A stretch of 64,000 bases of DNA from Tricharina praecox (GCF_024521635.1 NW_026250404.1:744001-808000), one strand, 5' to 3'; shown: positions 13,499 through 62,529, counted from the stretch's first letter. Notes: generated by a model not told the origin, from the sequence alone. Made by a program: numbers and translations.

Positions 13499-14773
13499 TC
13501 ACCAGCAGAGGGACACGCTGTGGCTACCAACCGGAGGCAAGAACTGGTGCGGGTAGACCTGTCCAACGGGGAGGTCCCGATGCTGCTGCTGCTGGGGCTG
13601 CGGCCATTCGTTCGTGGCTTGGTGCTGGTGGGGCTGGTGCTGGTGCGGCTGGTGGGACTGCGGTTGCTGGTGGAAGGAAGAGAAGTCGGGGAATGTGGGG
13701 CCTCGGGCCGGATTGCGATTGGGACTGTGCGAGTGATGGCGGCTCAACGGTTGCGAGTAGGAGTGCGAGTGCCTGATGGTGGGCTGGATGGTGCCTGAAC
13801 CGGGTGGGATGGACTGGTAGGCTGCGGGGGATAGTTAGTAGACTACTCGGCGGAAGGAAGAAGAAGAAGAAGAAGGGAAGGAACAGCGACGTACCGGTTA
13901 AGGTCGAATCCCCACGTGGCTGGCCACGTCTCTTTCGGCTCTCGAGCTGACCATTGTACTGTTTGATCAACGCCACGGCGACATTGACCTCATCCTGTTG
14001 CGTCTGGATCCCCCAGAGCGCATCCCTGACTTTGCAGCGCGCTTGGTAGTTGTCGTCTACACCCTGTGGCTGGTTGGGACAGGTCCTTTCGCCGCCCTTC
14101 TTTGTCTGGAGATGGCGGGTTTCCAACGCGAGACGCGTGAAGATTCGCTTACAGGTGGAGCATTGGAACGGTGAGAATTCCATGTGCTCTTCGATCAAAT
14201 GCTCCCTATTACACGCCATCGTGTTAGATTCAGACCGCGCGTTGGAAAGGAGGGGAGGAGACGACGGGAGAGTCGGTGGTCTTGAGGCAGGTGGGGGGAG
14301 GCAGGGTGGACTTGCCTCATGGTTGATGGCAGTGACGCCTCACTAGTACACGGCTGGCCGTTCTTCGTGAATGAACATCGAAGCAAAGCGCATGCTCCGG
14401 CAGGCGTGACGAGGTGGTGTTTACCGGCCTTCGAGACACGATTGAAGGGCCTGCCGGGTTTGAGACGTTTATTTGCAGGCAGCTGGGTTGATGGCTGGTG
14501 TGGCGGTTGCACTTGGGGACTCGACTGAGGGCCGCCGATATTATCGTGTTGCGAGTAGTTAAAAGTGGCCGGCAGGATAGCACTCCGACAGCTTTCAGGA
14601 ATACCAAAATCTATGTCTTCCGTAGGGGAGTGCTGTGGTGGTGAGGCGGACCCGTAGTCGTCGCCAGACGCACCGCCGTCGGAATACGTCTGGTAGAAGT
14701 GTACGTCCTCTTCCTCCTCCGTTGCAAACGATTGAGGGTGGTTCATGCTCGTATAGTCGTGGTGTGTCGTCAT
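13499..14773 (-). CDS. Zinc-finger protein ZF1 (C2H2 + C2HC-like fingers, Q/H-rich C-terminus)
   Basis: Minus-strand exons 14773-14316, 14205-13895 and 13821-13499. Intron 1 (14315-14206) is GC-AG (AG|GCAAGT..TCTAAC..TAG); intron 2 (13894-13822) is GTACGT..ACTAAC..CAG. Spliced product: RCSFTKNGQPCTSEASLPSTMREHLIEEH-MEFSPFQCSTCKRIFTRLALETRHLQTKKGGERTC. Start codon uncertain. Confidence 0.75.
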
Positions 14774-17404
14774 TATTGAGGTATCCGGGAACGTGGTTGG
14801 TCTCGCCGGGAGTTCCGCGCTTCTTGCGCGAGTCCTTAGGGTAGTATCACTGTGGTGAGTTTGATCCCCTGACGACACTCCTGGAAAGAGATGCTCCCAA
14901 AAGGCTGGATGTGAATCCTATAAGTCAATGTCTGTCTTGCGGCTCATCATCAAGGGGGGAGGCTGGCGCCGCCTTGGACAGGATAGTGAGGAATGGGAAC
15001 GAACCGGTTGGTGGATTATGAGCAGGTCGAGGAGGGCCGGATCCTTGCGCCATACAGTCCAAATGAATCCAAAGACAAGAAAGTTTGCCTGGTGTAGGGC
15101 AGTAGTAAACAGTGGGATACTGGAGTATCAATGTAGTTCTGGCTTCAGGTTGTGTTTCTGGACGAAAAGGACTCCAGGAGCGCCGGTTTATAAAAAAAAC
15201 CAACACTCCGACCTCTAAATCGACAGCGTATCTTGAAGAAAGACATAAGTGGTCGCCCTTCCAAAAGCCTCGCGTATCTTTTGAGCCGCTTCACCCCCTT
15301 CGTGTATGAATTTGCTTGCCGGTGCATTATGTGCTTCTAGAAGCGGACCTATCAAGGTCGGTACCCTTGTATCGGAGGGATGCCACACTTGGATGTATGC
15401 CACCACACCCTCCAGAAGGGGTACATCATTCAGCTGATGTCGAGGCGTGGCTGGTAGGTTCTACATACGTTGGCTTTTCTGGTGGGGCCATCTTGAGAGG
15501 ATTTTGGTGTTTTCTTTTTTTCTTCTTTTTTTTGTCGCGCTCTCCAGATCCATGTTTGGCCCTGCAGTTCAATGCGGCTCTTTCTCGATGTACTCCAGTC
15601 GGACATCGATGTCACATTTGCTATGATGCCCTCACAGATATTGGAGCGCACCACCTCCCGGCACCGAGCTTCGGGTGCGGCAGTCCATACGTAAGGATAC
15701 ACCATCTGCATCCAACGGTGATTCGAATCCCTCGTCCGAACGACACGACCCTGGGTGGGTTCATTGCGCACCTCAACACAACGTGCGATATCGATTGACG
15801 TGATGTCTGTCTCCCGGGCCCATGAATCCACTCATGCAGCATCACATCTGTATCGCTGGTGGGCGGACAGGGGTGGCGGCCATGGGCGTGAGTTCGCCGC
15901 TGAGCTGGACTATAGTAATTGGAGCTTCCCCAATCGAGCGGACATATCTGCAATTCTTTGACGTCAATTTTTGCGGGCTCTCTCGCTGTCCAAACGGGGG
16001 AAGACTGAAGAAACCACGATGGTGGATGGGGGCGAGCGTGGCTCAATGGAGCTCCGTGGTCTCGCGCGGCAACGGCCATCAGCGCTGCGGGTGGTTCTCT
16101 GTTGATGCAACGCATAGATAGCTACGGCCCGGGACTGTCGGCGAACGCCGAGCCACAGCCACGGTCCAGAGGCCGGACAGTGGGAGTACTCTGCGTAGGT
16201 CCGTAGGTACGTAGGCGTGCGGCTCTTAAGCCTTTTGAGGCCCAGACGGTACTCTAACAGAACAAACGTCCCGAGTTTCGAGTCGAGGGCTGGGATGATG
16301 TCCATCGATGTCGACGGCACGCACCAGACGAAAATTTGATTCGCCACCGGACCGACTGTTACCGTACCGTTGCGAGAGACAGCTGCAGCAATTATTGGCC
16401 GCTGTGGGCAGGCTCGGTCATCGAACAACGCATCAGCGTCAGGATTGGCAGCGAGACCGCTCGAGTGCGTACATGGTGGTGTCGACCAGAAAAAAGATTG
16501 ATCGCCTACCCGGCCTTTGCGGCTCCGCGGTAAGCATGATTCGCTGGCCGCAGCTCGAGGGCAAGCAACAGTGCGTTTGTCAAGTGGCACGCCAGGTTGT
16601 CTCCGCTTGGGAGCCAGTGGCAGGGCGCAACAGGGGCCGAATTCCTCGCAAGCCTATGGCGGAGGCAATATCGGTGGGTCTGTATGGTATGCAGAGCAGA
16701 GTCACTGGCGCTAGGGTTCTTCAGGGATTCGGATTCCGGTTTATCGCGATCGTGAGCTTGGATGCGGCTCTGAAGAGGCAGAAAAAGGAAGTGAGGACTG
16801 GCGGTATGTACGAACACGATGAGCCGGGGTGGGAGGGGTGGATACCCACGTATGTAAGTCGATAGTTACGCGTGGGGTGGCATCGTCGACTGTCGAGGTC
16901 TCGCCAGCTGGTGCTGTTAGGTACTGCATGTCGGCAAGGTCGAAAGGGGATCACGATCGCACGGAATCGCAGAGCAGAGCCTCCGAGCTTCAAACAGACG
17001 GGGGGAAACAAGTGGTGTCGTTGGTCCGGCCCTCGGGGAGGGCGGGGGGGCCATTTTGTGATTGGCCACGCAGAGCCGCATCAAGTTAAAAGCCGAAGGG
17101 GTGGTGGTGTGTGCAGTGCACTCGTGTATGGTGGAGAATGTATGTGGATACTCTATTGCAGATCATGAGCACGTATGTAGGTGGGGGATGTATGGATGTA
17201 TGGATGTAGGCCCCTCATTCTCCGTGAAGAGCCCCGCATGGGGTGGTGGTGGTGGACTGTGGTAGCACGACGAGAGCTTTGACGCACGCCTCACAGTCTC
17301 ACTTCCCCTCCTCTCCGCATTTCGTTTTTCACCTCGCACTGGCCATGCGCGAATAGAGCAATAATCGCCATCAGCTGCCGGTCCGGCGGAGTAATGTCAC
17401 ATCG

Positions 17405-17620
17405 CCGCCACCACCACCACCCACCACCATGCATCACCACCACCACCTCCATCACCACCACCACCACCACCACTCTACCACCACCACCGCCGCTACCACC
17501 ACCCACCACCCTACCACCACCACCGCCGCTACCACCACCCACCACCCACCATCATCATCACCACCACCACTTCCTCATCTTTCTCCTCCACCACCACCCA
17601 CCACCACAACCACCACAACC
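17405..17620. repeat. Imperfect (CAC)n microsatellite tract
   Basis: About 200 bp of CAC/CAT/CCA triplets between ZF1 and ZF2. Confidence 0.85.
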
Positions 17621-18578
17621 ATTACCCTCCATCCACTATGCACCAACGGCCCGTTGTTTTCACCGTGCTCACTGTACGCGTCTTACACACCAGAGTTGCT
17701 ACTACGTGACCCCGTCCACTTTCCCTTCCCTCCCCGTCCCCCCTCCGCCATCTCACTCTCCTCACGCCTCCCACTGCCCCCGGCCCACATGTGTCGTCGT
17801 CCGGTCCCTCATCAAAAAAGCGTCATGTCCAGTACTTCCGCAGCCAAACAGCGGGTACGGAGGGAACCATGTACCTACTTTGCCCACCGGGACGGCGGTT
17901 GCCTCGAGAACTGCCACTCTCGCCTTCTCCCCTCTCCCGCCCTCCGCAGGGATCTGTGACGTACGCGCATGATTATTGGGGGGGTGCTGTACTCTGTAGC
18001 CGCCATCGTTGATTGGCTGTCGTTATCCGGCCCCAAAACTCCCCAGTGTCGCCGTGCTCGCTCAAACAATCCGTCATGTTCGAGCGCACAGTCAGGCCGG
18101 CAGAGTCTCTCGTTCTTAAACGACTTCCCACCTCTCCAACACGCGCAGTACCCTCAAGAAAAAACACTGCGCACGCTCCCGCACTCCCCCCAGTGTCTGA
18201 TCCCCTATTGTGCTGTCGCTCCCCACCCCCCATCCCCCACCCCCCATCCCCCATCCCCCAAGCTTTCTGCGGCTTTTTCCAGGGGTAGGATGTGTTCTGT
18301 GGTTCTATGTCCGGCGCAACATCGATAAACCCAACCTATCGTATCTCCCTCTCGTATCCGACTTCGTCGCATACTGTTGCTGATCAGCCTTAGCCGGTAA
18401 ACCCCTCCTGATGCGCGCCCCCCATCCCCCCTCCCCCCTCCTCCCCCCTCCCCCTCCGCCCCCCCTCTCCTGTCCCCGCAGACTGCTGGACTCTGCCTAC
18501 CGTCCGTCGTGGGAAGTCTAGAGTACGGTGACGCTGATGGTACGGCAATATGGCGATGACAGGTCACAGCGCCATATT

Positions 18579-20300
18579 ATGATGGCGTCGTCTCCGCGCG
18601 CAATTGTCGCACCCCCCGATAGCCCTCCGGACTGGTGGATGCTCGACATCCAAATGAAGATATTCGAGTTCATATACCACGTCGTCGTGACCCTGGGCGT
18701 GGACTCCGCCCTCCTAACCTCTTCCTCCCTCGACACGCTCCTCGACGACCCCAAGCTGGACTCGGCCATCCAACTGGTGTACAGAAGGCTCCGCCTGCCC
18801 GGATCGCGCGGCGACCCGCCCCACCGTACGGCGTCGGAGTGGCACCACGACAAAAGAAAGATACTGGAATGCCTGGTACCGATTCACCAAGAACAGTCAC
18901 CCTATGAGCCAGCAGTCGATGCCGCCGAGATCCGACCTTTCAACACCCCTCAGGCGTCGGACAATAGCTATCAACTCTGGGTCACACTGGGGATAACCAC
19001 GGGATACACCGAACAACAGCAACATCAACAACACCAACAACAACACCAACAACAACAACAACGACCGCTACAACCATACCACACCCCACGGACGCCCGGG
19101 AACCTGCTAGACCACGACCTTGCGTCATCGGAGACGGAGACAGCCTCCGAAAACACCGTGACTCTGGGTGATTCACAGGCGCCTTTCAGCCCTGCCGATT
19201 CGGTCTCGCGAGGGAGGCGAAAGCGATCTACCAGCTCCATGCAGAACGAGAAGCCCGGAAAACGCACGCGGGGCGGCCCTCAGGATCACGTATGCCCCGC
19301 GTGCGGAAAGAAGTTTCCCTTCTTGTCCAAGTTGAAGGACCACCTCAAGACGCATTCTACCGAAAAGGTTCTCGGTTGTCATCTCTGCTCGAAAAGGTTC
19401 AAACGATCTCGCGAAGTCAATGCACACCTCAAGTCGGTACACAAAATTGACATCCAAACAATCGAGCCGTCGTCAGCACCCTCAATTTCGTCCCACTCGC
19501 ACTCACCGCTGTCAATGAACCCCGCAACCCCGGCCTCGCTTCCGACGCCTCATTCCCTATTCCCACCCACGCCAGGTTCGAGTTCATCATACCAGCCACC
19601 GCCACCTCGGCCTTCTCCTAGATCGACACTTCTTCTCCCGCTTTCGGGACCCTACCCCACTCCCGGACAGTTCGACGAATCAACTCCGGCATCAACCGCT
19701 GGAACCGACTACCGGGAGACGCCAAGCGCATACACCCCCCATAGCTATCAATCATACGATGACGACCGTATGCACGGCTACCGAGAGGCAAGCTATCGGG
19801 GGGATGGAATGGAAGACAATGATGGAGGCGGAAAGTCGGCGGCACGCGATAGTAACAGTCCCGAGCACCTTGCCGACCGTGTCGAGCGGATAGACATGAA
19901 CCGCGACAACTTGAAGCTGGCGCCCCTGTGGAAACTCGCGCCGTCGTCGTCCTTTGCGGCTCCGACACCTCAGAACACTCAACCGCAGCAGGAGCCCTTA
20001 CCGTCCATCGACGAGATCCAAGGCCTTTCCCCTGTTCCTGTCCCTGTTCCCGTTCCCGTTCCCGCTCCAACTCCAGTTCCAACGGAAGCGGAAACGGAGA
20101 CAGAGACGGAAGTGGGAGCGGAAGTAGAGACTCTGGGGAACAAGCCTGGGTTCGAAACGTCCTCACGGGCATCTCCGTCGGAATCCAGCAAACCCCCATC
20201 TGACTGTGGCTCTGACACCGAGTCTGTTACGGAGGCAAAACTGCAGAAGAAGGCTATTCAGGATCATGAAGCCCATGCGCTCTTGGGGGCCAGCTATTGA
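18579..20300 (+). CDS. C2H2 zinc-finger transcription factor ZF2 (two canonical fingers)
   Basis: Single long ORF with HVCPACGKKFPFLSKLKDHLKTH-STEKVLG-CHLCSKRFKRSREVNAHLKSVH (TGEKP-like linker), basic NLS-like RGRRKR..KPGKRTR, polyQ and Pro/Ser-rich regions. Alternative ATG at 18537. Confidence 0.9.
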   Translation: MMASSPRAIVAPPDSPPDWWMLDIQMKIFEFIYHVVVTLGVDSALLTSSSLDTLLDDPKLDSAIQLVYRRLRLPGSRGDPPHRTASEWHHDKRKILECLVPIHQEQSPYEPAVDAAEIRPFNTPQASDNSYQLWVTLGITTGYTEQQQHQQHQQQHQQQQQRPLQPYHTPRTPGNLLDHDLASSETETASENTVTLGDSQAPFSPADSVSRGRRKRSTSSMQNEKPGKRTRGGPQDHVCPACGKKFPFLSKLKDHLKTHSTEKVLGCHLCSKRFKRSREVNAHLKSVHKIDIQTIEPSSAPSISSHSHSPLSMNPATPASLPTPHSLFPPTPGSSSSYQPPPPRPSPRSTLLLPLSGPYPTPGQFDESTPASTAGTDYRETPSAYTPHSYQSYDDDRMHGYREASYRGDGMEDNDGGGKSAARDSNSPEHLADRVERIDMNRDNLKLAPLWKLAPSSSFAAPTPQNTQPQQEPLPSIDEIQGLSPVPVPVPVPVPAPTPVPTEAETETETEVGAEVETLGNKPGFETSSRASPSESSKPPSDCGSDTESVTEAKLQKKAIQDHEAHALLGASY

Positions 20301-22484
20301 TGTTGTACTCCGGTCGGTAGTCTGTCATTCAAGCACGCGTTCCCATAGATCCGTAGTCACATGGCTGATCATGTTTTATTTTTAGTTTCTTTTTCTATTC
20401 TGCAGCAAAACAACTTTCATCCAAAGCAGGGCGATTGGGATAGTGTGTACCGAATCATCTTCCATGGGGGTTCTGATCTTGCAGGTTTTCGTTGTAAATA
20501 ATTTTTGTGTCTACGTTGGCTGTCATCATTTTGGATCATTATGGATCCCTTTTCTCTTTATCCCCTTTTTTCTTTTTTCTTTCTTAGCTTGGCTTTCCGT
20601 CACCTGAATTGTATCACATACTGCAAGTCTCTAGAACGAACTGGAGAACGAGGGACACGGGCCGGGGTGAACGGCCAGGAGGGACTCTCGCGGGGTAACG
20701 GTGGCGTTGGACCGTTCTCTTGGGGCGGGTGATGGCGATGATTCACGCATGCACACGGCCTTGCATGCCTCCCTCCCCCTCCCCCCATGTACATACATAC
20801 CTCATACCTATCTCTTTCGTTCTCCACATCCTGTACTTTCACATCCAAGGTACCCTCCATCCCCCCCGGCTGAGCCTTATTGAACTCTCGCGAAGGAGGT
20901 AGTCACACGTAGGGATCAGTTGTCAGCCTGTGCACGTGTACTCGTGAATGCCCAGTCGTGTGCTCGGCCTCGCTGTGCGCGACGGGGCTGAGGATACGTG
21001 GGGAATGTGAGCATCTGGCTGAAAGTCCGCGCGTTGAAACACATGAAGTCCCCATCTAGAGTAGGTGCTTGCTAACCGATGGACTCGAGTGAAGATGGGC
21101 GTTCCACTACGGCACATACCATGACAGTCTTCCTTCCTTCCTTCCTCCCTAATTCCGGCCAACTCACTCATCGATCGATCTTCATTCGTGTTCAGCTACA
21201 TACAGACATACCCCATACATTCCCCAGCCCCACCGGGGAACCCAACCTCAGACATACAAATTGACTGACTGACTCGAATGCTCCGCCGTTAGTTCCCATA
21301 CCCATCCCGTATAGCCATCGCTATGTAGAGTACGGTATGATGGCTATGACTCGACCAATGTTCGACTCTCTCGGCTCATGGGTTAGCTGTGTGCTCTAGC
21401 TAGCTAGCTCGGTAGTCGCGCACCGCAGCGTGATCAGCAGCTGCACAGGCAAACAAGCAAGCAAGCAGGGCAAGCAGGCAGAACAGCGGGTACCCACTAA
21501 GCGGAGTCGCCTGGGAGGTATAGGCGATGGGCCGGGGATGCAGCACTCTGACTGGCCGCTGGCCGTTGTTGGCGTGTGAGTTTTCGAAGTCGCTTGGTGG
21601 TCGGGTCGCCCGTGACGGACACTGCCTGCGCCTCATTTTTGTTGCGCGCGCACAACGAAATCATCCCTGTCCGGCCAGTGCCCACCCCACACCCCAGCCA
21701 GCCAGCTACATACTCACGGTGGCTGTAACGAAGAGTAAGAAGAGTCAGTCAATCATGCCAGTCATGCAAAAACTTTGTCACCTACCGAAAGAGCGTGAGG
21801 GAGCGGTTAACAGCCTTGCGGAACTCACTAGGCAGGGCAGGGGAGGGGGGAGGGGGGCCGACTCCGACTACCTACGACTCCGACTCCGACCCAAGGCAAC
21901 CAACGAGGTGAAGTGTGCGAGACTGCCCGCAACATGGCAAGGGCTGCCCGCGCTCATTCTTCCCCCCATACATCCATGGGAATGGTGGTGAGAGCCGAAA
22001 ACCTCTAAGCTTTTTGCGCAGCATCCACTGCACTGCACAGCGGTGACATACGGCGCCATTCCCGTGCGTGCGTGCTGGCACCCAGCCAGACATATAAACT
22101 TGACGGTGACCTTCTTCAGTCTGCCAGGCCTTATCATTCCCACCCCACCCCTTCCTCCTAAGCCGCGATCTAATCCCTTCCATCCCGGATAGAGACGCCA
22201 GATCTAGTATTCCCAAGTCACTCCGTTGTTGATTCAAGAACTTTATTGCGGCTTGCGATTTTTTCGTGTGCTTCCGGAAAGAAAACAGCCTTTCCATCTG
22301 CCCGTTGGGGATCTCCCGCGCAGCCAACCCGGATCCCGCAGGTAGCCCGCAGTGCAGCCCGCATCCCACCCGCCCCACCGCCCATCCCGTCCGGGGTCAC
22401 CACAAAACTCGTCCCGTCTCTCGCCACCACATCTACTTCCTTTTAGACTCACCCTTTGGTATGTTCTCATACTACCAACCTATC

Positions 22485-24621
22485 ATGGCTTCCTCGTTAT
22501 TCAGCTCTGACCTTTCCGTCCACGATAGTCTCCCACTGTTCGACCACATGTCCATCTCCGACACCCGGCCGCCCTGGCTGCCAAACAACCTGGAGACCCT
22601 GGTGTTCGAAAAGGGCCTGACCATCCGCATCAACAACCTCCGCGAGAGCCGGTATCACTGCGAGATCGTTGGGCAAGTGCTGGACGCCGTGCTGCAGCAG
22701 CTGCCCGCGTCCCCGCCGCCCAGCGACTTCGAGGTCCGCATGGCCCGCCAGCACCTGGCCGTCGAGCTCCAGCACATCCTCAAGAAGTGGTGCGAAGAGG
22801 GCCTGGCTAAGACGCTGGGCGGCTCGTTTCTCGGCATGATCTCGACGGGTATGGAGGGAGTCGAGGGGCTCGGCGGTATGGGCTCCGTGGGTGGCAGCAC
22901 TGGAGGTAATGGCGGCGGGAGAAAGGACCTCCTCGTCCGCTCGTTCCGGCCGCCGTCCTTAAGCCCGTCCAGCCCGTCCCTTGTGCCGTCGTTCATCGAC
23001 CGGCCGGATCTGCAGGTGTATCGTGGTGGCGGTGGCGATAGCACGTCGTCGGCGCTGGTGCCCATGAAGCGCGCGTCCGACGACGATGATCAGGCGCTGT
23101 CAAATAAGTCGGGGAAGTTCTATACGGGCGGAGAGGCTGGTGGCGAGAAGGATTTTCGCTGCCCGTATAATGTTAGAGATCCGTCGTCCCATACCGAGTG
23201 TGCCAATAAGAGGTTCCCGAATCCGAGGAAGCTGAAGTATGCCCCCCCCGTATGATAGTGCGTGCGGATGCAGAGACTGATATTCGCGCGATAGGGAGCA
23301 TATCTGGAGATTCACCAAACCGTTCAAGTGTCCCACCTGCAACGAGGTACGGCGACCCTATTCCCCTCCGTTGGAGTTCCTGTCCTGACTGTCTCCCAGG
23401 GCTTCGGTAGGGAGAAGACCAAGGCGATCCACTGCCAGCAGCGCAAGGTCAAGTGCGTGCCATCGGAGCGAGACGAGTACGACAACAGCTACGAGCAGCA
23501 CCGAGACCGCCAGATCGACCGGGCCAAGAACACACCCGAGATAATCGGCATCTTTGAGGAGTATGACAGGAATTGTCAGTCCACATCCACATGTCAGTAA
23601 CCAACTACCATTTCTACCTCAAAAAAAAAGACGTCACCGTTGAGAAAAAGAAAAAAAAGATAAAACAACAGTCCTCGGCGAATATTTTCCGGAATTGCAG
23701 CCGCCGGCTGTTGGTTTCATCGCCCGAGATTGAAGAGACGCGGTGATGGTTGGGGTGGGGTACCGAGAACTGGGACTTGCTGACATCGGTGTGGCAGTCC
23801 TGACGACTTACGGCCCCAACCCAGATGATGCCCCGGAGACGGACAGCCCGGGATCTGACGACTCGGGGAGCATGACTCCCGTCGTCACCACTCCCGTCGT
23901 CACACTCCCTAGCCAGCACTGGCCGCAGATACCTCAGCGGAGTCCCGCGCCCATCCTCCGGATCCCCCAGCCAGCCGAGAAGTCGGGCTACCCGACGCCG
24001 CCCGGCGACCGAAACCCGTTCAGCCCGCACCACGACATCAGCCAGCAGTCGCTGGGCATGGTGGGCGAGTGCAACAGTCCGTTCCAGTCCGGGCCCATGG
24101 TGGGATTTCCCGAGGCGGGTACAACCGCGCACGACAACAACCCGTTTAATACCGACGGCATGTTTTCGCCCTCGTCCTCGGCACAACACCAGCAACAGCA
24201 ACAGCATGGCTTTCCCCTCCACGCCCTCGATATCCCCGAAATTGTCATCTCGGAGATGAACCCTACTATGAACAGCCCAATGACCCCAGCAGGCTTCAGA
24301 CCTTCCATGTTCCCCTTGGAAATGGACATGAGCGGCTCCTCGCCCACTCAGAGCCGGAGAACGTCCATGGCGTTGGCTATGGGCTCTCGCCATCCCCCAT
24401 CCCGCCAGCAACAGCAGCAGCAGCATCAGCGCCAGCAGCAACAGAACCAGCAACACCAGCATCAACACCAACACCACCAACAACAACAACATCAGCAGCA
24501 ACAGCAAAAACAGCAGCAGCAGTACCAGGAACCGGACGCATTCGATAGTATGCAGCAGGGAGAAGTCTACTCGCAGGGCTATGGCTCGATTCCACCAGTT
24601 CGGTTCCGCATGAAGTTTTGA
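22485..24621 (+). CDS. Zinc-finger protein ZF3 (atypical C2H2/C2HC fingers, polyQ C-terminus)
   Basis: Exons 22485-23236, 23295-23346, 23400-23574 and 23798-24621; donors GTATGC, GTACGG, GTCAGT with CTGAT/CTGAC branch sites; frame maintained. Spliced: FRCPYNVRDPSSHTECANKRFPNPRKLKEHIWRFTKPFKCPTCNEGFGREKTKAIHCQQRKVKC. Confidence 0.85.
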
Positions 24622-25781
24622 TCTCCACCTACTCTGTTTACGGGGGGATCAGCCTCCGCAGCGGCCCTCTCTCTCTATTCGGAAGAGCTGCGTGTAAAAG
24701 TACTCCTACTTATCTTTTCTTTTTCTTATTCTTCTTAAGTGCAGGTGGCGTTTGTATATTCGGCTGGAGTTTTTTCTTTTATTTTCATGTTTTTTCATTT
24801 TCTCATTTTCTCATTTTCTCATTTATTTTTCTAGCGATGGTCTTTTTGCGCGTTGATACCCTTTAGGCTTGATGTTGTGATACTTTTAGCGTTTCTTTAT
24901 GATATGATATGTTCTCACGTGTGGTTTTATGACGATGCTTCCTTTTCATGATAGTACTTGGGCATGTATTCTAGACGGGGTGCTTTACTTGTGCGCGATA
25001 TGGGCATTGGGAAGTGAAATAAAGGTGCAATACTACTACAGTAACTGGTGCCGTCGGTCATGTATGTGCGCACGGTGGCGCAGCTATGCATAAATCACCA
25101 AGTGCCCGGCGTACCAGTACGCTAGATATGGTATGTATCGGCTACGACGCTCGAATATTTTGCCGGATTTTAGCGGCCTAGAGTGCGGTACGGGAGATCA
25201 TCGAACGAACGAACGAACGAAGGTTTGCGGGACTAAGTACATGCCTGGACTGCCGATGCGCTGGCTGTTGTTGTGGTTGTGGTTGCTGTTAAGGTTGTGG
25301 TGTAGTTGCGGGTTTAGTTAAAGGTATGGTTGTGGCTGTGACTGTGCAGCCTGTGCTTTCCTGCCGAACGGACCGGTACCGATAGGTAGAGTAGGCGTTC
25401 CTAGGTGGTGGGTTGTGGAACAAACACCGCCCTGTGTTGCAGGCTTGCAGTGCAGTGCAGTGCAGTGCCATTTTTGCGAACTTTGCGAACATTGTTCCGT
25501 ACGATTGCGAACTTTGCCGGGTTTCCATACATGCATGCAATTTGCGAACTTTTGCTCTAGCGATTGCGAACACTGTGAACTTTTGGCTGCTCTGCGAACT
25601 TTGGCTGCGTGTGCGCAAAGTTAAAGCACAGGGATGGTGCGGATAATAAGTAGAGTACGTAGGGGTTGGAAGACCTGATCAGTGATTGCACCACGATGGT
25701 TATCTACCGGATCTACCCATCCATCCTAGGCTACTCTATTGACCTGACAGCTGCGCTGGCGGTGGGAAACAATGGAAAACG

Positions 25782-25881
25782 ATCATACAATCATACAATC
25801 ATGCAATCATACAATCAGACAATCAGACAATCAGACAATCAGACAATCAGACAATCAGACAATCAGACAATCAGACAATCA
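25782..25881. repeat. 8-bp tandem repeat (AATCAGAC)n grading from (AATCATAC)n
   Basis: Directly visible, about 12 units. Confidence 0.9.
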
Positions 25882-26629
25882 TAAACACTGCCCTACAGTA
25901 CGTGTGTACCACCGCGACCCGTTACCGCATGCCTACTCCACACAGAGTACCTAGACCGAGACTGAGACCCAGACGTAAGCGAAATATGCGAAGGTTCAAG
26001 GGAGCAGACCGGACTGTGTTGGGAGTCGGGACTCGGGGGTCGCAAGTTCGAACCCGCCTGGGGTGTGGCTTGTCGCTGAGTACCTATGGCAGTACCTATG
26101 GCAGTGTGGCTTGCGCCTGGCTTTGCCATGCCTGCTGTACAATACATATGATACCCAGTGCAGCATACGGTCTCGCCCAGGGGAGCAGGTACAATACATA
26201 CACACGAATTCTCGGCCGCACCCCATCGCAAGGCTGAACACCTCGAACACCTCGACTCTCGACTCTCGACTCTCGACTCCCTGGCCTGTCTCCTTGTCCC
26301 CGCCGGCGTCGTCCACTCACATCGCGCGTTACAACTGTAAGCTGTCACCGCAGTGGTATGACCTCATCCGGCATGCGATGCGCGCGCAGATTTAAGAATC
26401 TAGCCACTGGCCTACTGCAACTCTACTCTAGAGTCTAGAGTTTACTCCAGAGTAGTTAAAAATTTATGCACCCCATTCCGTCAGCGCACATACGTTTGTA
26501 CCACACTTGGGGATGGAGGATGCGGAGGAGGATGGAGGTTGGAGATTGGAGGTTAGAGGATAGTGGACGATGAGCGGGAGGATGGAGGATCAACGGTAGA
26601 GTATATTGCCCTGAGCCAGACCTGAGCAC

Positions 26630-35239: not shown

Positions 35240-37168
35240 TTAGAAAGGACTGTCGCTTAGTGGAGTCATGTAAAGATCCGACGGCGACACAGTGCTGCCA
35301 CCAACCCCAACAGAAAAGTCATGTGGAAGTCGGTGGTCTTGAAGAAGATGCCGGTGGAAAGGGTATAAATCCGGCGATGTGCTGTTAAACATCGTCGAGC
35401 CAGAAGCAGATACCGCCGCATGGCTGATTGTGTGTTGAGAGACCTCGACGGTTGTACCATCGGTGCCCCGTGCTGTCTTTCCTGCAAACGCAAAGTGCTC
35501 GTCGAATTGCATCCAATTGTCGGAAATGCCAGACAGCACGGCTTCAGTGGAGAGCTGACTAGCTTTCCTGAGCTTATCCTCGCGACTAGCGGCAAGTTGC
35601 TGAACGTATGACGCAACAGGCTTGGTCGCGACACCTCCTTGATCTGTGCTCGACGTTACTTCGTACCCTTCCTCTTCCTCTTCCTCTTCCTCCTCCTCCT
35701 CTTCCTCTTCTTCCCATTTCGGCTGTTCGCCTTCTGCAGAGTCTTGCTCCACCTCTCCCTCTCTTTCCGAACTCTCGAGCGACTGCCTTTCCTTTTCCTT
35801 TTCCGCTTGGCCTTTGTTCTTCTTTCCTCCTCTTTTCCGTGCCTCCCCATCGACCTCAACCTCAATAGCCTCGATCCAATCGCGAATGTTGTCGGGAACG
35901 ACTACACCTGGTGTCTTCTCCGGGTTGAAGTGCTGCCTTTTGAGATGTGCGGTGGCGTTGTAGTCGACGCCGTAGTGTCGGTCGGTCGTACACGCCTTGC
36001 ATCTCGAGAGGAGTCCGCTACCCGATCTATCCCGTACCACCCACACTCTCTTCTTCCGGGCATGAATACGTTCGAAGTGGCGTCGGTATTCATGGTCCCC
36101 TCGAAATCCGTTGTGTCCGTCGGGACACAGTGGGCAGAGGACTCGGGGGTGTCTAGGCCGGACGTAGACGCCTCTCCCCCAGGTTGAACTGCCTGTTCGG
36201 GTTTGCGAGTTGCCCCGTTGCTGGGGCTTGGTCCGTTGGTTGCTCGGGGGTTGGTCCTGACCTTGGTCTTTTGATCGTCCGGTAGAAACCCGTTTCGCTG
36301 CTTTGGTCTGACACTTCAAACTGCTGGTGAGAGCCTTCTCCGCTTCCGCTTGATGAAGCTCCTGAACCGAAACCGCTGCACTTCGCTTGGTAGAAGTGGA
36401 CAGTACGATGGGTGGCGAGCTGTACTCGAAATCCTCGAATCCATGGCCGATTCCGGAGATGGCAATGTCGTCGTGCTCGCCGTACGAGGAATTTTCACCG
36501 TGTTGTGTCTCAAAACATGCCGAATCGAACGCACCCGTCATTCCGGTGGATCCATTTGAGTTCCTGCTTGTGGCCGTGTTGAGGAATGTGGCCAACTCGA
36601 AAGAGGGAGGAGCATCGAAATGCTGTTCCATCGTGGCCGTTGTCGTCGAGCCGAGAGTGAACGTTGACGACTCCCAGAGATACGAGGCGTCATACTGGAT
36701 ATTGGGTGCACTCCGAATCTTCGCCTCCGAGGGTTGGCATTCTTCCGGGAGATATATCGGATCGTTTGCCAGGGGCTGGCCAAGATAATTCTCGAGGGCC
36801 GGCGACCACGGCCTTGCTGCTGGATGTGGTGGCGGTGCCGCATCGGAGAAAGAGTCGGGTGTAGGCGGAAGGAAGTCGTAGGTTGGGCTTATCTACTGAA
36901 TGTGAGCCATGCGCCTAGACACAGACCTCCCCCGCCTCGTACACGGACGGATATCTCTTACCGTCGAGTGCTTCGGGATCTGTTGCGGTCTTGTTGCGAT
37001 GCAGCTTTCTGCAGTCAACAGAGTCCGTGCCTCTTCTTCTTCTTCATCTTCTTCCGAGCGATCATTATCGGCAAAGAACACCTTGATCGCCTGTTCCGCC
37101 GACACGTCCGGATTCTCTTTGATATACCGGGCGAACGCCCGCAATGTCGGTTCCGAAGGTGTATGCAT
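35240..37168 (-). CDS. Zinc-finger protein ZF4, KLAP1 (key lime pathogenicity protein)-like / DUF7896-type domain
   Basis: Exons 37168-36962 and 36892-35240 (69-nt intron GTAAGA..GCTCAC..CAGTAG). YVRPRHPRVLCPLCPDGHNGFRGDHEYRRHFERIH...LSRCKACTTDRHYGVDYNATAHLKRQHF matches the recalled KLAP1-family signature (GFRGEHELRRH...CKAC...YNAAAHLRR.HF); a poly-Glu tract follows. Confidence 0.85.
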
Positions 37169-41914: not shown

Positions 41915-41946
<32 letters not shown>

Positions 41947-42912: not shown

Positions 42913-44816
42913 ATGGGTATGTCCGGTTTGCTCCCCCAGAGTACGCCATGCCCGGCGACTTTCAACGAATCCTCCGGCTAACCGAATGGATATGCACATC
43001 AGACGTCCCAGCAACATCTGCCGCAGCGGAACGGGGCAATGCAGTGGTACATGGCCCTTCTGCAATCCCACTCCGTTAGTTAGCCTCGCCTTCTAACCGA
43101 TATCCATCCATACGAGTAGCCATTTACTGCCGAAGATGCACGCGCTGGCCTTTTCGGGAGCAGAGCAGATGTTGGCCAGGCGGAGGAGATACAGCACCCA
43201 CATCAATATCACCATCACCATATCCGCGGACCTGTGGGAAGCCCCGGCCAACACCTCTTGAGCGAATCTCCACCTCCTTTTGACCCATATGCCAAAACCT
43301 TGCGGTGTAGTTGGGCGGACTGTGGCTTCACATGCCATTTCACTCAGAGTACAGGCTGGAGGTATGTACTTGCCACTAACCATTCTCCATCTCACATCAT
43401 ACTACTATGGTCAGCTAACCGCTTCGCAGGGAGCATAGGAGGTCTCGGGGCGTCTGCCGTTCTAGTCGGAACCGAGCACGCTGCTGTTTCACAGCGTGCA
43501 ATGACTCTTCGTCATCTTTCGCCAGCATCCAAGAGGCATATATTCACGAAGACACGGCGCACACCATCTGGGTGTGCATCAGTTGCAAATATGCCTTTTC
43601 GCAGTCCAACCATGCATTGAGGCATATCAAGCTCGAGCACCCCATGATCGTCGTAGCGGAGACGGCGATCAAAGTGCTGTGGATGCTGCATCGACCGGCT
43701 GGACATGCGTTTTCGATGGAGTTGGGATCGTGTGTCGACCTCGAACGCCCATTGGTGAAATTGCCCTTCGAAGAGGGAGTCTCGCCAAGTAACACGAGGC
43801 TGCTGCTGCTCCACGATAGCAATAATCCTCCGGAATATATGAAGGCCGCCGTAACGCGATACCTCGCGGCCAATATGACGACGTTGAATGCCTTCTTGGC
43901 GGATACACTTCCATTGGATGATGCGAACGGGAGATTTTTGACCGGTTATATCGAACAGCAGACCCAGATTCCGCTCGGTCAAGCCGGCGAAGCAAAGCCT
44001 TGGGGCAACACCGGTAGCGTCCCAACAACATCGGCGCGGCTATCATCGGTGCAGTCAGCGTCAGTTCAGCCGACTCCGTTATTCACTGACCCGAATGCCA
44101 AGCCAGCCTTCTTCGACGCACCCGCCTACCAGGCTCGCAGGCCGCACCGCGAATCATCATGGCACGTGCCACAAGTCCTCACATCCGGCGAGGCACCGGA
44201 GCCGCGTCCCCGTCTTCACCGACGAACCTCATCGGGGGGCTTCGAGCCGCTACAAGAAAAGTCGCTCTCAGGCGAGAAGCAACGCGAGTATTTCCTGCAG
44301 ATGCAGGACTGCATCGTCGAGGCAGCGTTCGACTTCTACATCCGGCACCACAAGATCCTCGACACCGTGACAGACCGGAAGCGACGGCCGCTCTGCTGTG
44401 CCACCGCGGGCCGCGAGCGGATCACGAACAAGAACGACCTCACCCTGCCGCAGTGGACGCATCTGCTCCGGCGACTGTCGGATGCGAAGGGCCTCCTGCG
44501 CAACATGGTCTCGCGCCTCGAGTCGTTCAATGGCGAGATCCAGCCGGTCGACGAAGTGCGCCACGCCTATTCGAAAAAGAAGGAGAAGTCGGATCGCGAC
44601 GTGCTGGCGCTGGTGCAGGTGACGCGGTGCTTCTGCTGGCAGCTGAGGGATTGGGAGAAGTGCAGCCAGCTCGACGACCTTTACGAGACGGTCGAGGCGC
44701 GCATCGCGCTTGCGAAGAGGGAGAAGGAGTGGCTGATGCAGGGCGTAGACGCGACGCCACTGCGGCCGATGCCGCCTACAAGAACGAGTGCGACGTGGCC
44801 GAAGGTCGCGCAATAG
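42913..44816 (+). CDS. Zinc-finger protein ZF5 (three fingers plus C-terminal helical domain of unknown function)
   Basis: Clear intron 43362-43429 (GTATGT..GCTAAC..CAG) gives RCSWADCGFTCHFTQSTGWREHRRSRGVC..RCCFTACNDSSSSFASIQEAYIHEDTAH-TIWVCISCKYAFSQSNHALRHIKLEH; last exon 43430-44816. The 5' exons are tentative (ATG 42913, intron 42917-43002, second intron ending at ~43119). Confidence 0.75.
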
Positions 44817-55000: not shown

Positions 55001-55900
55001 CCGTGCATACTTCCTTTGTAGTGAATTGGATGTACAACACACAATGAAAGATTCGCCCGAATTGCGAACCAACCAAACTCCTGTTCTCAATTCGCCCCCT
55101 CGCCCCTAAGGGTAGCTAGAGCACATGCAAGCGATAGCGCACCTGATACCTGATTGAGCACAGTGCACAGTGCACACTTGCACAGTTGCACGCTGAGTCA
55201 CCGCTGCTCGGGTTCCTTCCAGCCAGACTAGTGGTGCACGTTTTCGGCATCGGGCCGGAGCCTTGTGGGACAGGCAGTAGGATGAAGGATGGTCTGAGCA
55301 CCGCGGCGTCGTCAGCGTCCACCGAACCGAACCGTCTCGGGGATCGGGATGCTGGTACCCTACCCAGCCGGACTCGGCATGGCTGAGCTTTTTCGGAGCC
55401 TGGTTGTGCATTTGCACAACTTTTGGTTCGGGGGTATTTACTTCGGGAAGATCGATGTCTGGAAAAATATTCTCCGTGTCCGCTACCCACTCCTGTGCCG
55501 ACCGACCACTGCTTCCGTCCTGCTACTATTCATACACTCCTCGGGCTTCATAGCATTCAGCCCGGCTTAAGACTGCTGTTTGCTCGTATTTTTATCCAAT
55601 ATATCCGCGTCCGTGGTTGTCACCGTGCAACGTTTACCTCTCGGACTCGGTCTTCGACTATCAACCCTAACCCCACGGGTCGGGCCCTCGCAGCTCCCTC
55701 TCTCCCGTGCGTTCTCAGCGCTGCATTATCACGCTCGGTCGTAGCCTACCGTGGTCTATTACCGCACGGGTAAGCCCACGGAGCATCTCAGATGCGGGTT
55801 GAACGCAATGCTGAATCCTGAAGCAGCCACAGTTTTCGGCGGCCCCTCCCAATTCTCACTCGCCCTCGCTCCCTCCAGCCAGCCCTTAGCGCCGTGAGCC

Positions 55901-57175
55901 ATGGCATCCACGGGACCACCCCCGTCGCCGCCGCCAGGCTGGACCATCCTGCCGGACAATGAGTGGCTGACGCGCACGGCTGCGGTCCTGCTCGGCTACA
56001 TCCAGCCGTCGAGCCCGCTGCTTCCCGGGGAGCTGACCAAGATCGCGACGCAGTACCTCAACAGCCGGAACAGCAACAAGCTGCAGGGCTACGAGATCGA
56101 GTACCTGGAGGGGTACATCCGGAAGCAGCTGCCGGCGCTGGACCTGTCGGCGTACCACCGCGTCGGCGGCGGAGCCGGAGCCGGAGCCGAAGAGACCCAT
56201 ACCCATACCCATACCGACGCCATGCGCAGCGTCCTGGACTACTACGGCGGCGTCGTGGACCACGGTAATTCTGAGGCAAGTGCGCTCAACGCCCCAGCCC
56301 TGTGTTTTCAGGGCACCAAGGATCTAGGGATTTTCCTGCGTGAGAATGATGCGATGGATGATACCGACTACGATGACAACGACGACGGGTCGTCGGCGCA
56401 GACCGTATATAGCGAGGTGGGTACCGAGTGACCGTGGGGGAAAAAAGATACCCATCTGGCGCCAAGTGAGCCGGCTGCCGGCTGGCTGGTGGGGGAGGGG
56501 ATTCGGACCTTTACTTGGCGGGATGGATCCCGGGTAAAGGGATCACCGTTTCTCGTCAATGATACATTATGTACCTACATATGTGCCTATCGGCACATGA
56601 TGGCAGAAACTAGTACGCTAACCATGGTCCTCCACCAGATTACGAGCCAGTATGAGCTCGCCACGGTAGCAACCAGCGTCAGCGGTGCCAGCGCGTCGCC
56701 GGCCTGCAAGCGGTTCGGCTGCGGCTACTGCGGGAAGGAATTCAGCAAGCGATTCGAATTGAACCGGCACTGGATCGGACTCGCCAAGTCCTGCACCGAG
56801 CGGCTCGTCGAATTCCCTCCGTCATTGTCGCAGTGCAGCCGCTGCGGCAAGAAGACGTCACAATCCGGAACCGGCATCGACAGTATCGCCGAGCACGACG
56901 GTAATTTCGGCACTCAGGTCCGAACCGATTCCCTTCCGAAGGGGTGGAGACGCGGCTACCCAAAGCTATCGGAGCAGGAAGAGGAGGACGATTTCTTTGA
57001 ACCGACCGAGGCGGGCTATCCTTCGGCCCGGCCCACGATGTTTGCCGGCCGGTTCAGAGAGTCGGAATCGGCGGAGTGGATGCCTAAGCACGTGCAGTTC
57101 AAGCACAACCCGAACGACCGAAAGCCTGCTCGGAAGGCGGGGTGTGGTAGCGGCATCGGGGATGCATGCGCCTGA
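55901..57175 (+). CDS. Zinc-finger protein ZF6 (C2HC-like finger, N-terminal helical domain)
   Basis: GCCATGG start. Exons 55901-56416 and 56639-57175 (phase-0 intron GTGGGT..GCTAAC..CAG). Finger FGCGYCGKEFSKRFELNRHWIGLAKSC, followed by a second CxxC (QCSRCGKK). Confidence 0.75.
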
Positions 57176-60100
57176 AGCGCGCCGTGAGTGATCCTTGATG
57201 ATGCAGAAACTGCGTACCCGATCGATACGTTACCGGCTAACGGAGGTCACCCAGAAGCACCAGACGCGTGCGACGACAAGCGGATTTGACGCCGAAGCAT
57301 GCAGCGTAAGCTCGAGCGGGGTGAACGTTGGGATGATTAAGATCCTGCGTTGGACTTGCTCTTGCTTGCTTGTGGAGAGCCCCTGTGTCTTTGAGTACCG
57401 ATTCGATCTGCCGAAGTTCTTTCGTGTCGCTTTGTTTGCTGTTGATTATTTTTATGTACATGACGAAACATGATTATTTTCGCGCATGAATGGAGAGTCC
57501 GCCACGAAAGGGACGGAAACGCATATCGTATGTGAGACCACGCAACGTAAATCCTGTCAACCGGCGACGAACGCAGGCGGAACTCCAATGAAGTGAGGGG
57601 GTGGGGAGTAGGTGGTACCGTAGTAGCTACCTAGGTTTCGGACGATTGCTGAACACTTCTCTTCTGCGAGTGGATGCAAAGCAAGCAAAGACGAACAGCT
57701 CTAGATATGGGTACCTGGGTTTTGCCCCATGATCGTGGCTCCGCTTCACCGGAAGGATCGCCATGGGACTGTTATTGGACGCGCGCGGATCGGTACCCCG
57801 AATCTGTACATCAACACAGTCTGAGCATGGGGAATCATCTTATTTAGCCATCCATCCATCCATCCATCCATCCATCCATCAAGTGGGGCGGTTGCAGACG
57901 TGCGGAATGGGCGATGGCTACTTACGTACGTAAGAGCCATCGCGGCGTAGGCATTGCTCCACGTCAACCCGCTGCATACCAGTAATCCCCAGTCCCGGCA
58001 GGTTTCTAGGAGTACAGAGAAGCGGCGTTCACAGTACTTGGAGGGGGGGCTTCTGGAACACCGATGCTAGCTCGATAATAGACTTGTGGTAGTGGTAGAC
58101 TAGTAGCAGATCCATTTGCCGGCCGTCACGGTGAACCATGCCGGTCGGTGTGTACGACATGTACGTACTGTAGGTCGCGGAAACCGGTGCACACGGAGAA
58201 AAAACATGTTCCCACGCAACGAAACGTGACGAGTTCTGTGCAACTTGATGCGCAAGAGCAGATGGGGCTCGAATGACCACCGATCTCGCCGAGCGGAGCG
58301 GACGCAACGGACGATTTTAATTTCATTGTTGGGTACCCGCCGCACGGTAGTAGTCGCTCGAGGGTATCGAAAAATCTAACGGACGTTCCTGATTGAACAG
58401 CGGATAATCGATGTCTCACATGCTAACGCGCCGATTAGCTTTCTACGAGGAAACAAGCAAGTGGACGCGCGCCGGATGGAGGGGGAAGGGGAGGGGGGAC
58501 TCGGGCCCGCCGCGACAAACGATATCGATAGCCACGATCGGGGATCGCATTGAAGCTCCTCCTCTACGTCCTCAGCATGTCCGCGGGGTACATACTAGCA
58601 TGTACCGTGGTATGTACAGAGTTACCTACACGACCCATGGAAGATCGCAGCCGTGAAACTCACCGGAAACTTTCCGGCCGCGTAAGCGATAATGTCCGTA
58701 GGTCGTAGGCGTGATTTGAACCAAGTTTCCGAACAGCCGACAGGGACTTTCCATGGCACGGCTATGGGCATTGTGAGCACTGTCGTGAGCTATTTTGAGG
58801 AGGGGGAGGAGGAGGAGGAGCAGGATGCGCCGACTACCATCGTCTCTTACAAGTTACGGGGGTTGTCCCTCCCTCTCTCTAGTCGCCCGCAAGGTTTCTC
58901 ATGTGCCGAAGTCGAGCCAATAACTGCAATCTGCCGATTATTCCTCGCATCTGGCCGAGTGCCTGCGATAGGTGGTGGCAGTGGTGGTGACGGTGGTGGT
59001 GGCAGTGGTGGTGGTGGTGGTTCACAGAGTCGTTCCAGTTACATACCCCCGTCCTTCGTCCCCTCTCGACGCAGGTGTGTCTCCACCGCAGCTCTCGGAC
59101 CAATTGGCAGTGTGCTTCGTTCGAGTCCGCATCCCGGGCATCCCACAAGGAGCCAGCCCTAGATAGATGAATGAGTCAGGCCAACCGGTTAACCATGCAC
59201 CAGCCAGTCCTGCCCACTATCGCAGATTATAGAGTATGTAGAGTAGAGTAGAGTGAATAGCAGTCAGTTAGCGTTTGCGGTGGTGGTGGTGGTCTCTCCA
59301 TTATTATCGAGCACTCCACGAACATGATCGATCTGGGGCTCCGCCCCCCTCACTACTCTATGTATTGTACTTGGGTGGCTGTCGACTGTAGACTGTACAT
59401 ACATCATACATCATACATATACCACATAGTGTCTAAAAGAGCCTCAGTTGGTCTGCGTCTGCGTCTGCAGGGAAGGGAGTGGATTGAGAGCCGCCGAGGC
59501 TCTGCGGGTGCTCGCATGCATCGGGGAAGAGTTGCCAAAGCGGAAGGAGGTCGGGACAGTCCGCATGCCGCACCATGGTTAATTAGAGCCGCAAAAAGTT
59601 TGACTGCATCGCTCGCAGCTCGCATTCCAGGATCGTTCATTCGCATTGAACGAGGGCCGAGACATCCCCCGCCCCCGCCCATCCACGGCCAGCGCCGGTC
59701 TGTCCCACCAATCTGCCCGGACCGTCGCTAAAAAACTTGGACTTCCCGATTTCGGGCCCCGCTCACCCCACTCCGACACACCGGCTATTCGATCGCGAAT
59801 CGACTGGAGTGGTTAAAACTCACATACCTACGTGTGGCCCCCATCGCGGCATGGCGGGCCACAGCAGGCAGGCAGAAAGAACCCCAAACCCTGGAAACTG
59901 CGTGTTGGTTAGCTTCACACTACACATATGTGAGGTCTAGATACTTGCGTGGGGGGACGGACAGGTAAGTCTGTACTTGCTTAGGTAGGTCTCGTACTCT
60001 ATCGTGGCAGGGGGCTTCCGAGCCGGCCATGCAAATCATATTGCGAAGGAAGGAACATTCCAATCTGCAATGCGCTGCTGAGCCGCAACTTAACTGGTCG

Positions 60101-61174
60101 GCCCACCCCATATTTAGCCGTGGGACTAGTATGGAGGGAGGTAGTAGCAGTCGGAGTGGATGCCACTGATACATACACACGGTAGTAAGCACTGTGGAAC
60201 GGCCGGTGTCGGTGGAGGTGACAGTTCGTGGCCATGGAGTTGCGTGGTGTAGCACGGAGCTCCACAAATTTGCCCCAACTTCCTGGGAAATGTTGATAAA
60301 TTTACTCTCTTTTTGTGGCTATGCCCCATGTTCTCCCCTCGGCGACTTTCTCGTAGACATAAAGACATAGCCCTTCCTTCATGGGCCCGTGAGCTGGCCA
60401 TCCCCGGAGACAGCGCCCGAGGCGTCCGTGATGACGGCTCCAGGGATCGGCTTGCTGGTTCGCCCGGGTGTGGTTTGCTCTGCACGAGACACCCCCCCTC
60501 CCCATCCCCCCAATGCACTCAGAAGCTGGAGCTGACTGATGCTAGATCGCCGTGGCTCGACGCATTGACTGTCGTCGAATCCGAATGGCTGTGGTCCGGA
60601 GGGGGAGGGGATTTCGCTGATATCAGAGCGGTGGCTGGGCGGGTCGCTCTTCTACTTTCCACAAATGACGGCCACTCTGTGAGCTGCTCCCGCAACATAA
60701 GTCAGTATAGTACGGTAGGTAGCGGACGACGTATCGGAACTCTCATTCAGTGGCCAGTTGTGGGCTAGTTAGCTGACATAGCCGTGATGGTTTTAAGCCG
60801 CCCACCACGCTATGCATGAATGCAGGTCGGTATCCTAGATTGAACCGCTAACCCCAAGAAAGTGCTTGTTGTACGTGAAGCAAGCCGCAGGCTCCATGAG
60901 AAATTCTCGGCGGCGCAGAGCTGCGGGTGAGCCTCACGGCAGGGGAAGGGGAAGGCAAGAGAGGGTGGGGAGAAAGGGCGCCATACTAGCCCCATCACGC
61001 TGCCGATAATCATTTGTCCACACTGAGACCCCTCCATGGCCGAAGTCCTAGAAAAGCAACGCGGAATCCCTTGGAGGCTGAGAAGAGGCTCTTCGTTTCA
61101 GGGCACCAATTCGACTTTCTCTACCGGCAAAAATAAAAACTGTTTATATCTGCTTCTCTGCCCTCTTGTTGACC

Positions 61175-62529
61175 ATGGATTCGTCCTTCCGTTCCAGCAT
61201 CCACCTTCACCAGACTTCCGCCGCCGACGCTTTGGAACATGCGCTTGACCGAACAGCCGCAGAGTACCAGTTGCATACACTGAACCTGCCGTCCTCGCCG
61301 CAATCCTTGGACATGCACGAGTCTAGACACCAGGCCCGAAGCTTTCAACTGTCCCATCCCTCCGTCCTCACGCCGCTGCACAGCTCGTTCGGATCTCGAA
61401 GCCCGTCCCCCTCGGCCTGGCAGCTCTGCTCGCACAACACTCCCGTCCGGCCATCTTCGCCAATCTCTCTGGACGGCCTGGAACCGTCTTCCTGCGATTA
61501 CCAGCGGCACGCCGAGTACCAGCGATATACATCGCCGCTATTGTCGGACGACTTCTCTACTTCCGAAGACCAGCTATACCCCGCGCTCATGGCTTCCAAC
61601 GGTCTAGGGACGCCGCCGGGCTCGATAAACGGGAGCACTACGGAATTGGATCGCCAGCCCCAACTCTACATGCAACACTCTACTCCCATGCCTGGCGACT
61701 ACCTGACGCCGGTGGCCCACGGCCATCCCTACGGAGACCCGACCTACGGCCGTGAAGCTCCCAGGGAGATCCATCACTCCAGAAGCGGTATGTTGACACC
61801 CCCCCACCTACGCAAGCCTGCAGGTTGCCGGTGATGCATGTGACTAACATCGGACAGGTCATTCGTCCTCCGCCCCATACGTATATTCGTCCTACGGGAT
61901 GGATCCGCGGTCGCCGCAGCCCTATCAGCCCAACGATCTGCCTCCGCTGCCTTGGTCCACGACCGTTCCAAGGAATCTCCCGCCGCCACCCGCGGTAGTT
62001 GGGCAGTACGTCGGGCAATCGCAGCAGTGGGGCGAACGAAGTCCCATCTCATACCATGACGACTTGCAGGAGAGCAGTTACCGGTGCGCCAGTGCGCGCT
62101 GCCGGTTTACGGCGAGCTCCCCGGAGCAATTGACGTGAGTAATCCACGCACCCTGGTGCATACGTACATACATTGTGTCTGACATCGCTGTTCAGTAAAC
62201 ACCAGCAAAAGCACCTAAAGATCCACCACTGCCGGTTCGCGTCCTGCTCTCGAACCGAAGGCTTCGCGACGCCCAACGACCGCGAGCGCCACGAAAAGTC
62301 CATCCACAAGATCCCCGGCTGCTACTGGAAGTGCCTCGACAACCACTGCAGCAGCTACGGCAAAGAGTTTAGCCGCCGCGATAATCTGAAGGATCACCTG
62401 CGCCGCATGCACCCCGTCCCTGAGGGCATGAGCGAGAATGAGGCCAGCGCCCTGCGCAGCAGGATGGCGGACATGTGGCGGTTTGACAAGGGAAGCGATG
62501 CGCAGGTCATGGCGGTGGAGAGAAGATAG
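61175..62529 (+). CDS. C2H2 zinc-finger transcription factor ZF7 (three C-terminal fingers)
   Basis: ACCATGG start. Exons 61175-61787, 61858-62134 and 62196-62529 with canonical introns. Spliced: YRCASARCRFTASSPEQLTKHQQKH-LKIHHCRFASCSRTEGFATPNDRERHEKSIH-KIPGCYWKCLDNHCSSYGKEFSRRDNLKDHLRRMH. Confidence 0.9.

Follow-up and report, generated by a model that had tools for sequence, protein, structure and literature searches.

Four zinc-finger genes in a 64,000-nucleotide (nt) stretch of the Tricharina praecox genome share an intron at one and the same position of their first finger, and this intron marks a divergent lineage of C2H2-type genes with short inter-finger linkers, not the gene cluster alone in which it was noticed. 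The stretch, hereafter the window, is C17:744001-808000 in an assembly of 38.4 Mb and 104 contigs; its finger genes are called ZF1-ZF7, and labels of the type C17:208k give positions on contig C17. The window sits inside a run of 13 C2H2-type finger genes at C17 ~711k-832k (~121 kb). We consider it probable that an ordinary U2 intron was inherited from the ancestor of the short-linker lineage, and that this lineage multiplied both locally and by dispersal.

The introns in ZF1, ZF3, ZF5 and ZF7, reported by a first-pass annotation of the window, are confirmed at the coordinates in Table 1: all are phase 2 and split the codon two residues before the first His. All four have the GT or GC donor, branch point and YAG acceptor of U2 introns, with a branch-point-like motif 16-22 nt before the 3' end, and removal of the intron gives a Cys..Cys..His frame in every gene. 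For ZF5 and ZF7 the junctions were checked against assembled contigs of two runs (X1 and X2, from two studies) that cover both genes; these runs are presumably RNA, and numerous further GT-AG and CT-AC introns are likewise missing from their contigs. The skips of 68 nt in ZF5 and 61 nt in ZF7 are exact in both runs, whereas the junctions of ZF1 and ZF3 were checked by sequence comparison. Six of eight aligned ZF1 homologues join at an invariant Arg153 and the other two read through an intron-like insert there; a 100% identical library protein implies the same splicing, though it probably derives from this genome. The ZF3 intron is predicted likewise in two unlinked paralogues, C9:609k and C1:1956k. 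The probability that four genes share one site by chance is ~3e-6 if sites are used uniformly, and ~4e-3 at the frequency of the commonest other site.

By comparison with SltA, where the Lys that precedes the His of finger I is position +6 (PMC4557415), the split codon is position +5 of the recognition helix. In a structure model of ZF1 the junction falls within the helix formed by residues 149-160, at a predicted local distance difference test score (pLDDT) above 90. On its upstream side the intron has the beta-hairpin and helix positions -1 to +3, and on its downstream side +6 together with the His ligands. The observation that three of the genes resume with identical GGAGCAT holds, but these letters simply comprise the last base of an Arg or Lys codon and the codons for Glu and His, and the other four carriers in the cluster resume with different bases. 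The description of the following His as zinc-ligating is likewise to be qualified for ZF3, where Phe replaces the second His of finger 1, and for ZF5, with C-x4-C-x14-H-x6-C.

Within the cluster, the intron is carried by eight of the 13 genes (710840, 712392, ZF1, ZF3, ZF5, ZF7, 817271 and 831663); those at 720k and 729k (PF26082), ZF2, ZF4 (DUF7896) and ZF6 are without it. The gene at 831663, at one end, matches proteins named Ace1 (PF28329) and is Ace1/SltA-like. The survey covered 284 kb of C17; thirteen genes in ~121 kb compare with 0.33 expected, although the cluster was scanned more thoroughly than the rest of the genome. At 735-740k the array is broken by three housekeeping genes, among them a kinase and a member of the S8e family; we take the three to be Mps1, Nsa2 and MrpL21. 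The cluster is real and conserved among Pezizomycetes: linked orthologues of its members occur in seven named genomes of this class, where linkage was judged from accession order and equal contig sizes, not from read DNA. In Wilcoxina the Ace1-like, ZF7 and ZF1 orthologues (KAF8246029, 036 and 049) lie on one contig in the order found here, with the 729k orthologue on a different contig; the orthologues of ZF1, ZF7 and 729k share a contig in Geopyxis, as do those of ZF1 and ZF7 in Pyronema omphalodes, and in four Morchella species 12-13 accessions separate the 729k orthologue from that of ZF7. This neighbourhood seems to predate the class, because in three of 30 long loci of other fungi Ace1 adjoins an orthologue of Rad17, the kinase or the S8e gene. 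The flanks, as distinct from the whole contigs, of 30 Ace1 loci of at least 5 kb from other fungi showed no C2H2 neighbours. In the table of Aspergillus nidulans genes the 720k gene is matched most closely by AN7580, whose number is remote from that of sltA (AN2919), and the part of the table covered has no C2H2 row after AN7580 (PMC8396895 supplement).

The first-pass annotation had explained the shared position by local duplication of one ancestral gene. Common descent is supported, but local duplication does not follow, since the same intron occurs in no fewer than 14 unlinked genes, which are spread over 10 contigs. Loci were fetched genome-wide by Pfam and pattern searches and finger-internal introns then predicted in each, and the unlinked introns are thus gene-model predictions from sequence. 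A first count found seven carriers among 92 unlinked genes (C83:894k, C10:504k, C10:508k, C1:1956k, C9:609k, C15:198k and C8:1139k); the C83 gene is AN0644-like. A wider pattern aimed at the shared site (79 matches, 51 loci examined) doubled this number by adding C2:25k, C2:30k, C11:52k, C17:208k, C19:609k, C21:281k and, less surely, C50:1665k. The count of 14 is a lower bound, from which one duplicate (C54) and one degenerate copy (C10:506k) are excluded. One further pattern search returned 35 matches (27 in its control); among the 30 loci examined the sole carriers were two already known, and general scans showed no split finger in the remaining five. As a cluster-specific marker the intron was accordingly rejected, the unlinked carriers outnumbering the eight in the cluster. 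Two close intron-bearing paralogues flank the degenerate third copy in a mini-cluster at C10:503.7k-508.1k (L065-L067), and identical finger loci on two contigs each (L035/L036, L103/L104 and L312/L313) suggest assembly redundancy or recent duplication.

Introns at the shared site number 19 among the unlinked genes and 27 with the eight of the cluster, compared with 25 other finger-internal introns distributed over 16 sites (at most four per site); among the finger-internal intron sites found in the genome, none is nearly as common. Five dispersed genes (L286, L287, L301, L310 and L312, on C2, C11, C17:208k and C21) have the intron in two successive fingers. The resulting exon is a symmetrical phase 2-2 unit of two half-fingers, and the second fingers have a very long Cys-to-His spacing; the recurrence of this arrangement in five dispersed genes suggests that the exon itself was copied.

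An enrichment of carriers inside the cluster, suggested earlier as a test, is found in the overall comparison: 8/13 inside versus 14/99 outside (p=4.5e-4), where the 99 genes include weak Pfam hits and search bias acts on both sides. It is absent within the short-linker class. Two intron-blind searches for a finger followed by a two-residue linker yielded 15 genuine short-linker genes, 12 of them with the intron, and carriers amount to 3/3 inside and 9/12 outside the cluster (p=0.48). The cluster is therefore enriched in the intron because it is rich in the short-linker lineage. Among the canonical-linker genes fetched, which presumably represent CreA, Msn2, PacC, Ste12, Crz1 and Azf1 types, none has an intron at the shared site, their introns being elsewhere or absent; this comparison covers the fetched loci. 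Short-linker relatives without the intron are C12:390k (L005), C26:423k (L124) and C1:1976k (L058), the first of which, a possible retro-copy or case of intron loss, is joined to the Ace1-like gene as its sister on a starred branch.

Common descent of these fingers is likely, because the site is the commonest, tracks short-linker fingers and was not seen in canonical-linker genes. A finger phylogeny, also proposed earlier, leaves the branching open while showing that the intron is clustered. On a tree of 54 two-finger units and 58 columns, from which seven late-found carriers are absent, the intron label requires eight changes compared with 13.3 after shuffling, and none of 500 shuffles was as low. 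Approximately unbiased (AU) tests (fast search, 2000 replicates) neither show nor reject a single clade of the four window genes (p=0.12), and they do not reject a clade of the carriers together with four intronless relatives (p=0.39). Several observations weigh against a simple inheritance of the intron. The tree is largely unresolved (four of 51 branches starred), and an exclusive clade of the 15 carriers then known is marginally rejected (AU p=0.044). Ace1/SltA relatives have a contiguous finger 1, with the intron absent in 80/80 metagenome loci, of which 21 are contigs of at least 8 kb and many others may be transcripts; consequently the intron either disappeared there or arose later, in Pezizomycetes. 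In many cases the split codon is Arg or Lys (AG/R or AA/R, the slash marking the split), a favoured context for intron insertion, and some carriers, e.g. C15:198k and C8:1139k, could be parallel gains. A single origin with subsequent losses would nevertheless be allowed by the data.

These observations can have several explanations. Extending the first-pass view, the cluster could be the cradle in which one intron-bearing gene was duplicated in place, the unlinked carriers being later emigrants. The density of the array, the overall excess of carriers in it, the linked orthologues, the grouping of the 711k gene with ZF7 on the tree (95/70) and the three long metagenome loci (of 30) in which Ace1 adjoins genes with orthologues inside or near the cluster all speak for such an origin. 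However, carriers are more numerous outside and show no enrichment within the short-linker class, the only protein-search match of ZF3 and the tree sister of the Ace1-like gene are both unlinked, five cluster genes are intronless and three housekeeping genes interrupt the array, so that we regard the cradle as possible but rather unlikely. Alternatively, the intron might have been gained repeatedly and independently at a proto-splice site in the helix, in which case its position would say little on ancestry. In most cases the upstream flank ends with AG, AA or CG, the 80 intronless Ace1 loci of other fungi agree with repeated gain, and so do the eight changes needed on the tree; yet the adjacent codon, with the same Arg context in canonical fingers, holds only three phase-2 introns against 27 at the shared site, and independent insertion alone hardly accounts for the lack of the intron in those canonical-linker genes that were examined, so that we consider repeated gain improbable.

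The idea that the intron provides shared splicing control found no support. As a common switch, coordinated retention would inactivate the DNA-binding domains of all cluster genes at once, and retention would indeed shift the frame or introduce a stop in all eight cluster carriers, as had been expected for the four; such a loss of function is, however, generic for any intron inside a finger. The GC donor of ZF1 is weak, and in one homologue that reads through, the residues at the donor match. On the other hand, no shared motif was found in the intron cores (mean core score 10.2 within the cluster, 10.1 among other introns), and only spliced joints are listed for ZF5 and ZF7 in X1 and X2, where contigs drop rare forms and minor retention is possible. 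We hold a common switch to be very improbable.

Under the favoured explanation, inheritance within the short-linker lineage, the intron would be constitutively spliced and have no regulatory role of its own, in fingers that presumably bind DNA. The lineage would have expanded in place as well as by dispersal. Some old members, densely grouped and with the Ace1/SltA-like gene at one end, would have stayed together in Pezizomycetes as the ~120 kb cluster, and some members would have lost the intron. A bolder scenario, which we put forward as speculation with a small chance of being correct, is that Pezizomycetes retain an ancient array of filamentous-ascomycete C2H2 regulators, to which the Ace1/SltA ancestor belonged and which has long intergenic regions and antisense RNAs. 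Such an array would be held together by co-regulation. From it the families would have spread, losing the intron in other classes, and the phase 2-2 half-finger exon would be the unit from which the lineage built new arrays.

Table 1. Finger genes of the window, their introns and an antisense transcript (positions counted from the first nucleotide of the window).
Feature	Position	Strand	Description
ZF1 shared-position intron	14315-14206	minus	GC-AG, 110 nt, phase 2; homologues join or read through at same Arg
ZF3 shared-position intron	23237-23294	plus	GT-AG, 58 nt, phase 2; splice signals
ZF5 shared-position intron	43362-43429	plus	GT-AG, 68 nt, phase 2; spliced in X1 and X2
ZF7 shared-position intron	62135-62195	plus	GT-AG, 61 nt, phase 2; spliced in X1 and X2
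ZF1 gene	13416..14773	minus	370 amino acids; finger 1 C-x8-C-x12-H-x4-H, finger 2, then conserved helical domain
ZF2 open frame	18522..20300	plus	two fingers at ~19287-19442, without finger intron; PF00096 29.9 bits; start uncertain
ZF3 gene	22461..24621 (ends approximate)	plus	finger 1 C-x12-C-x13-H-x3-F
ZF3 second predicted intron	23347-23399	plus	within finger 2
ZF4 main exon	35240..36892	minus	DUF7896 (PF25438) finger pair, E 1.6e-13; without finger intron
ZF5 gene	42914..44816 (start approximate)	plus	three divergent fingers; upstream intron 43047-43119
ZF6	55902..57175	plus	predicted from open frames; one finger at ~56714-56790; without shared intron
ZF6 antisense spliced transcript	55078..58761	minus	covers whole predicted ZF6; longest ATG frame 108 amino acids
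ZF7 gene	61175..62529	plus	three fingers; finger 1 C-x4-C-x12-H-x3-H; first intron 61788-61857

ZF1 has orthologues in Wilcoxina, Geopyxis, Pyronema and Tuber, and the two Cys and two His of its finger 1 are invariant among the aligned homologues. Its model exceeds pLDDT 90 across residues 131-240 and predicts a beta-beta-alpha finger; the top Foldseek matches are C2H2 fingers, none of them significant (best E 0.087), and the Atlas look-alikes are C2H2 as well. The best relatives of ZF7 are found in Trichophaea (86%), Geopyxis, Pyronema, Ascodesmis and Morchella, in keeping with a Pezizomycete, and its orthologues carry PF27716. ZF7 fits the ligand pattern of PF00096, ZF1 fits it with an eight-residue Cys loop, and ZF3 and ZF5 depart from it at the last ligand. 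The exon pieces of ZF1, ZF3, ZF5 and ZF7 as well as spliced ZF1 score below the PF00096 gathering cut-off of 25.2, which the homologues P0196 (28.2) and P0001 (26.6) exceed. None of these fingers is followed by a canonical four-residue linker of the TGEKP type.

No plus-strand spliced contig of ZF6 is among the rows listed for X1 and X2. Its antisense transcript has CT..AC joints at 56456-56508 and 57804-57925 in both runs, and at 55294-55358 in X2. The long interval that separates ZF5 from ZF7 contains further minus-strand spliced transcripts (50148-50203, 51855-51923, 52905-52992 and 59898-59962), without obvious open frames. In the segment 54237-54897 the summed contig depth is very high (327 and 644), and X2 shows a non-canonical joint of 83 bases; this segment may represent an abundant short RNA or a repeat. 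Several alternative introns of the 5' untranslated region lie upstream of ZF7 at 60457-60863 in X1. Long low-complexity open frames at 6279-12077, rich in Glu/Ala/Val repeats, have no Pfam match.

The intron by itself is ordinary, but it provides a usable marker for a group of fungal finger genes whose relationships are not resolved by sequence trees. These genes also escape Pfam scans of genomic DNA, because their first finger is cut in two. Our data further indicate that cup fungi and morels share a conserved cluster of ~13 regulators around Ace1/SltA; its origin and co-regulation are testable. The cluster of divergent C2H2-type genes is apparently undescribed: neither it nor the intron was found in the literature searched, which comprised mostly titles and the beginnings of abstracts and did not cover subscription papers.

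Among the closest known systems are Ace1 of Trichoderma and SltA of A. nidulans (AN2919), represented here by the gene at C17:831.6k, which matches Ace1-named proteins. In contrast to the contiguous finger 1 of the 80 metagenome relatives, however, finger 1 is split by the intron here, and the two named Pezizomycete matches are without PF28347. SltA is restricted to Pezizomycotina, and no cluster is mentioned in the available part of the source (PMC4557415). Conserved microsyntenic blocks are known from filamentous ascomycetes, those of Mycosphaerellaceae being enriched in transcriptional regulators, but the study covers Dothideomycetes and the term 'C2H2' is absent from its main text (PMC3516569). 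Compared with classical C2H2 fingers (PF00096), the predicted beta-beta-alpha model of ZF1 is similar, with the junction inside its helix, whereas the fingers described here have short linkers, long Cys loops and, in ZF3 and ZF5, altered last ligands. Animal KRAB-ZNF or Hox clusters are tandem arrays of transcription factors with a shared exon structure. The Tricharina cluster resembles them in being densely packed with a single DNA-binding class, in the shared intron and in its conserved linkage, but its members are extremely diverged, of mixed orientation and interrupted by housekeeping genes, and the intron that marks them is shared with relatives outside the cluster.

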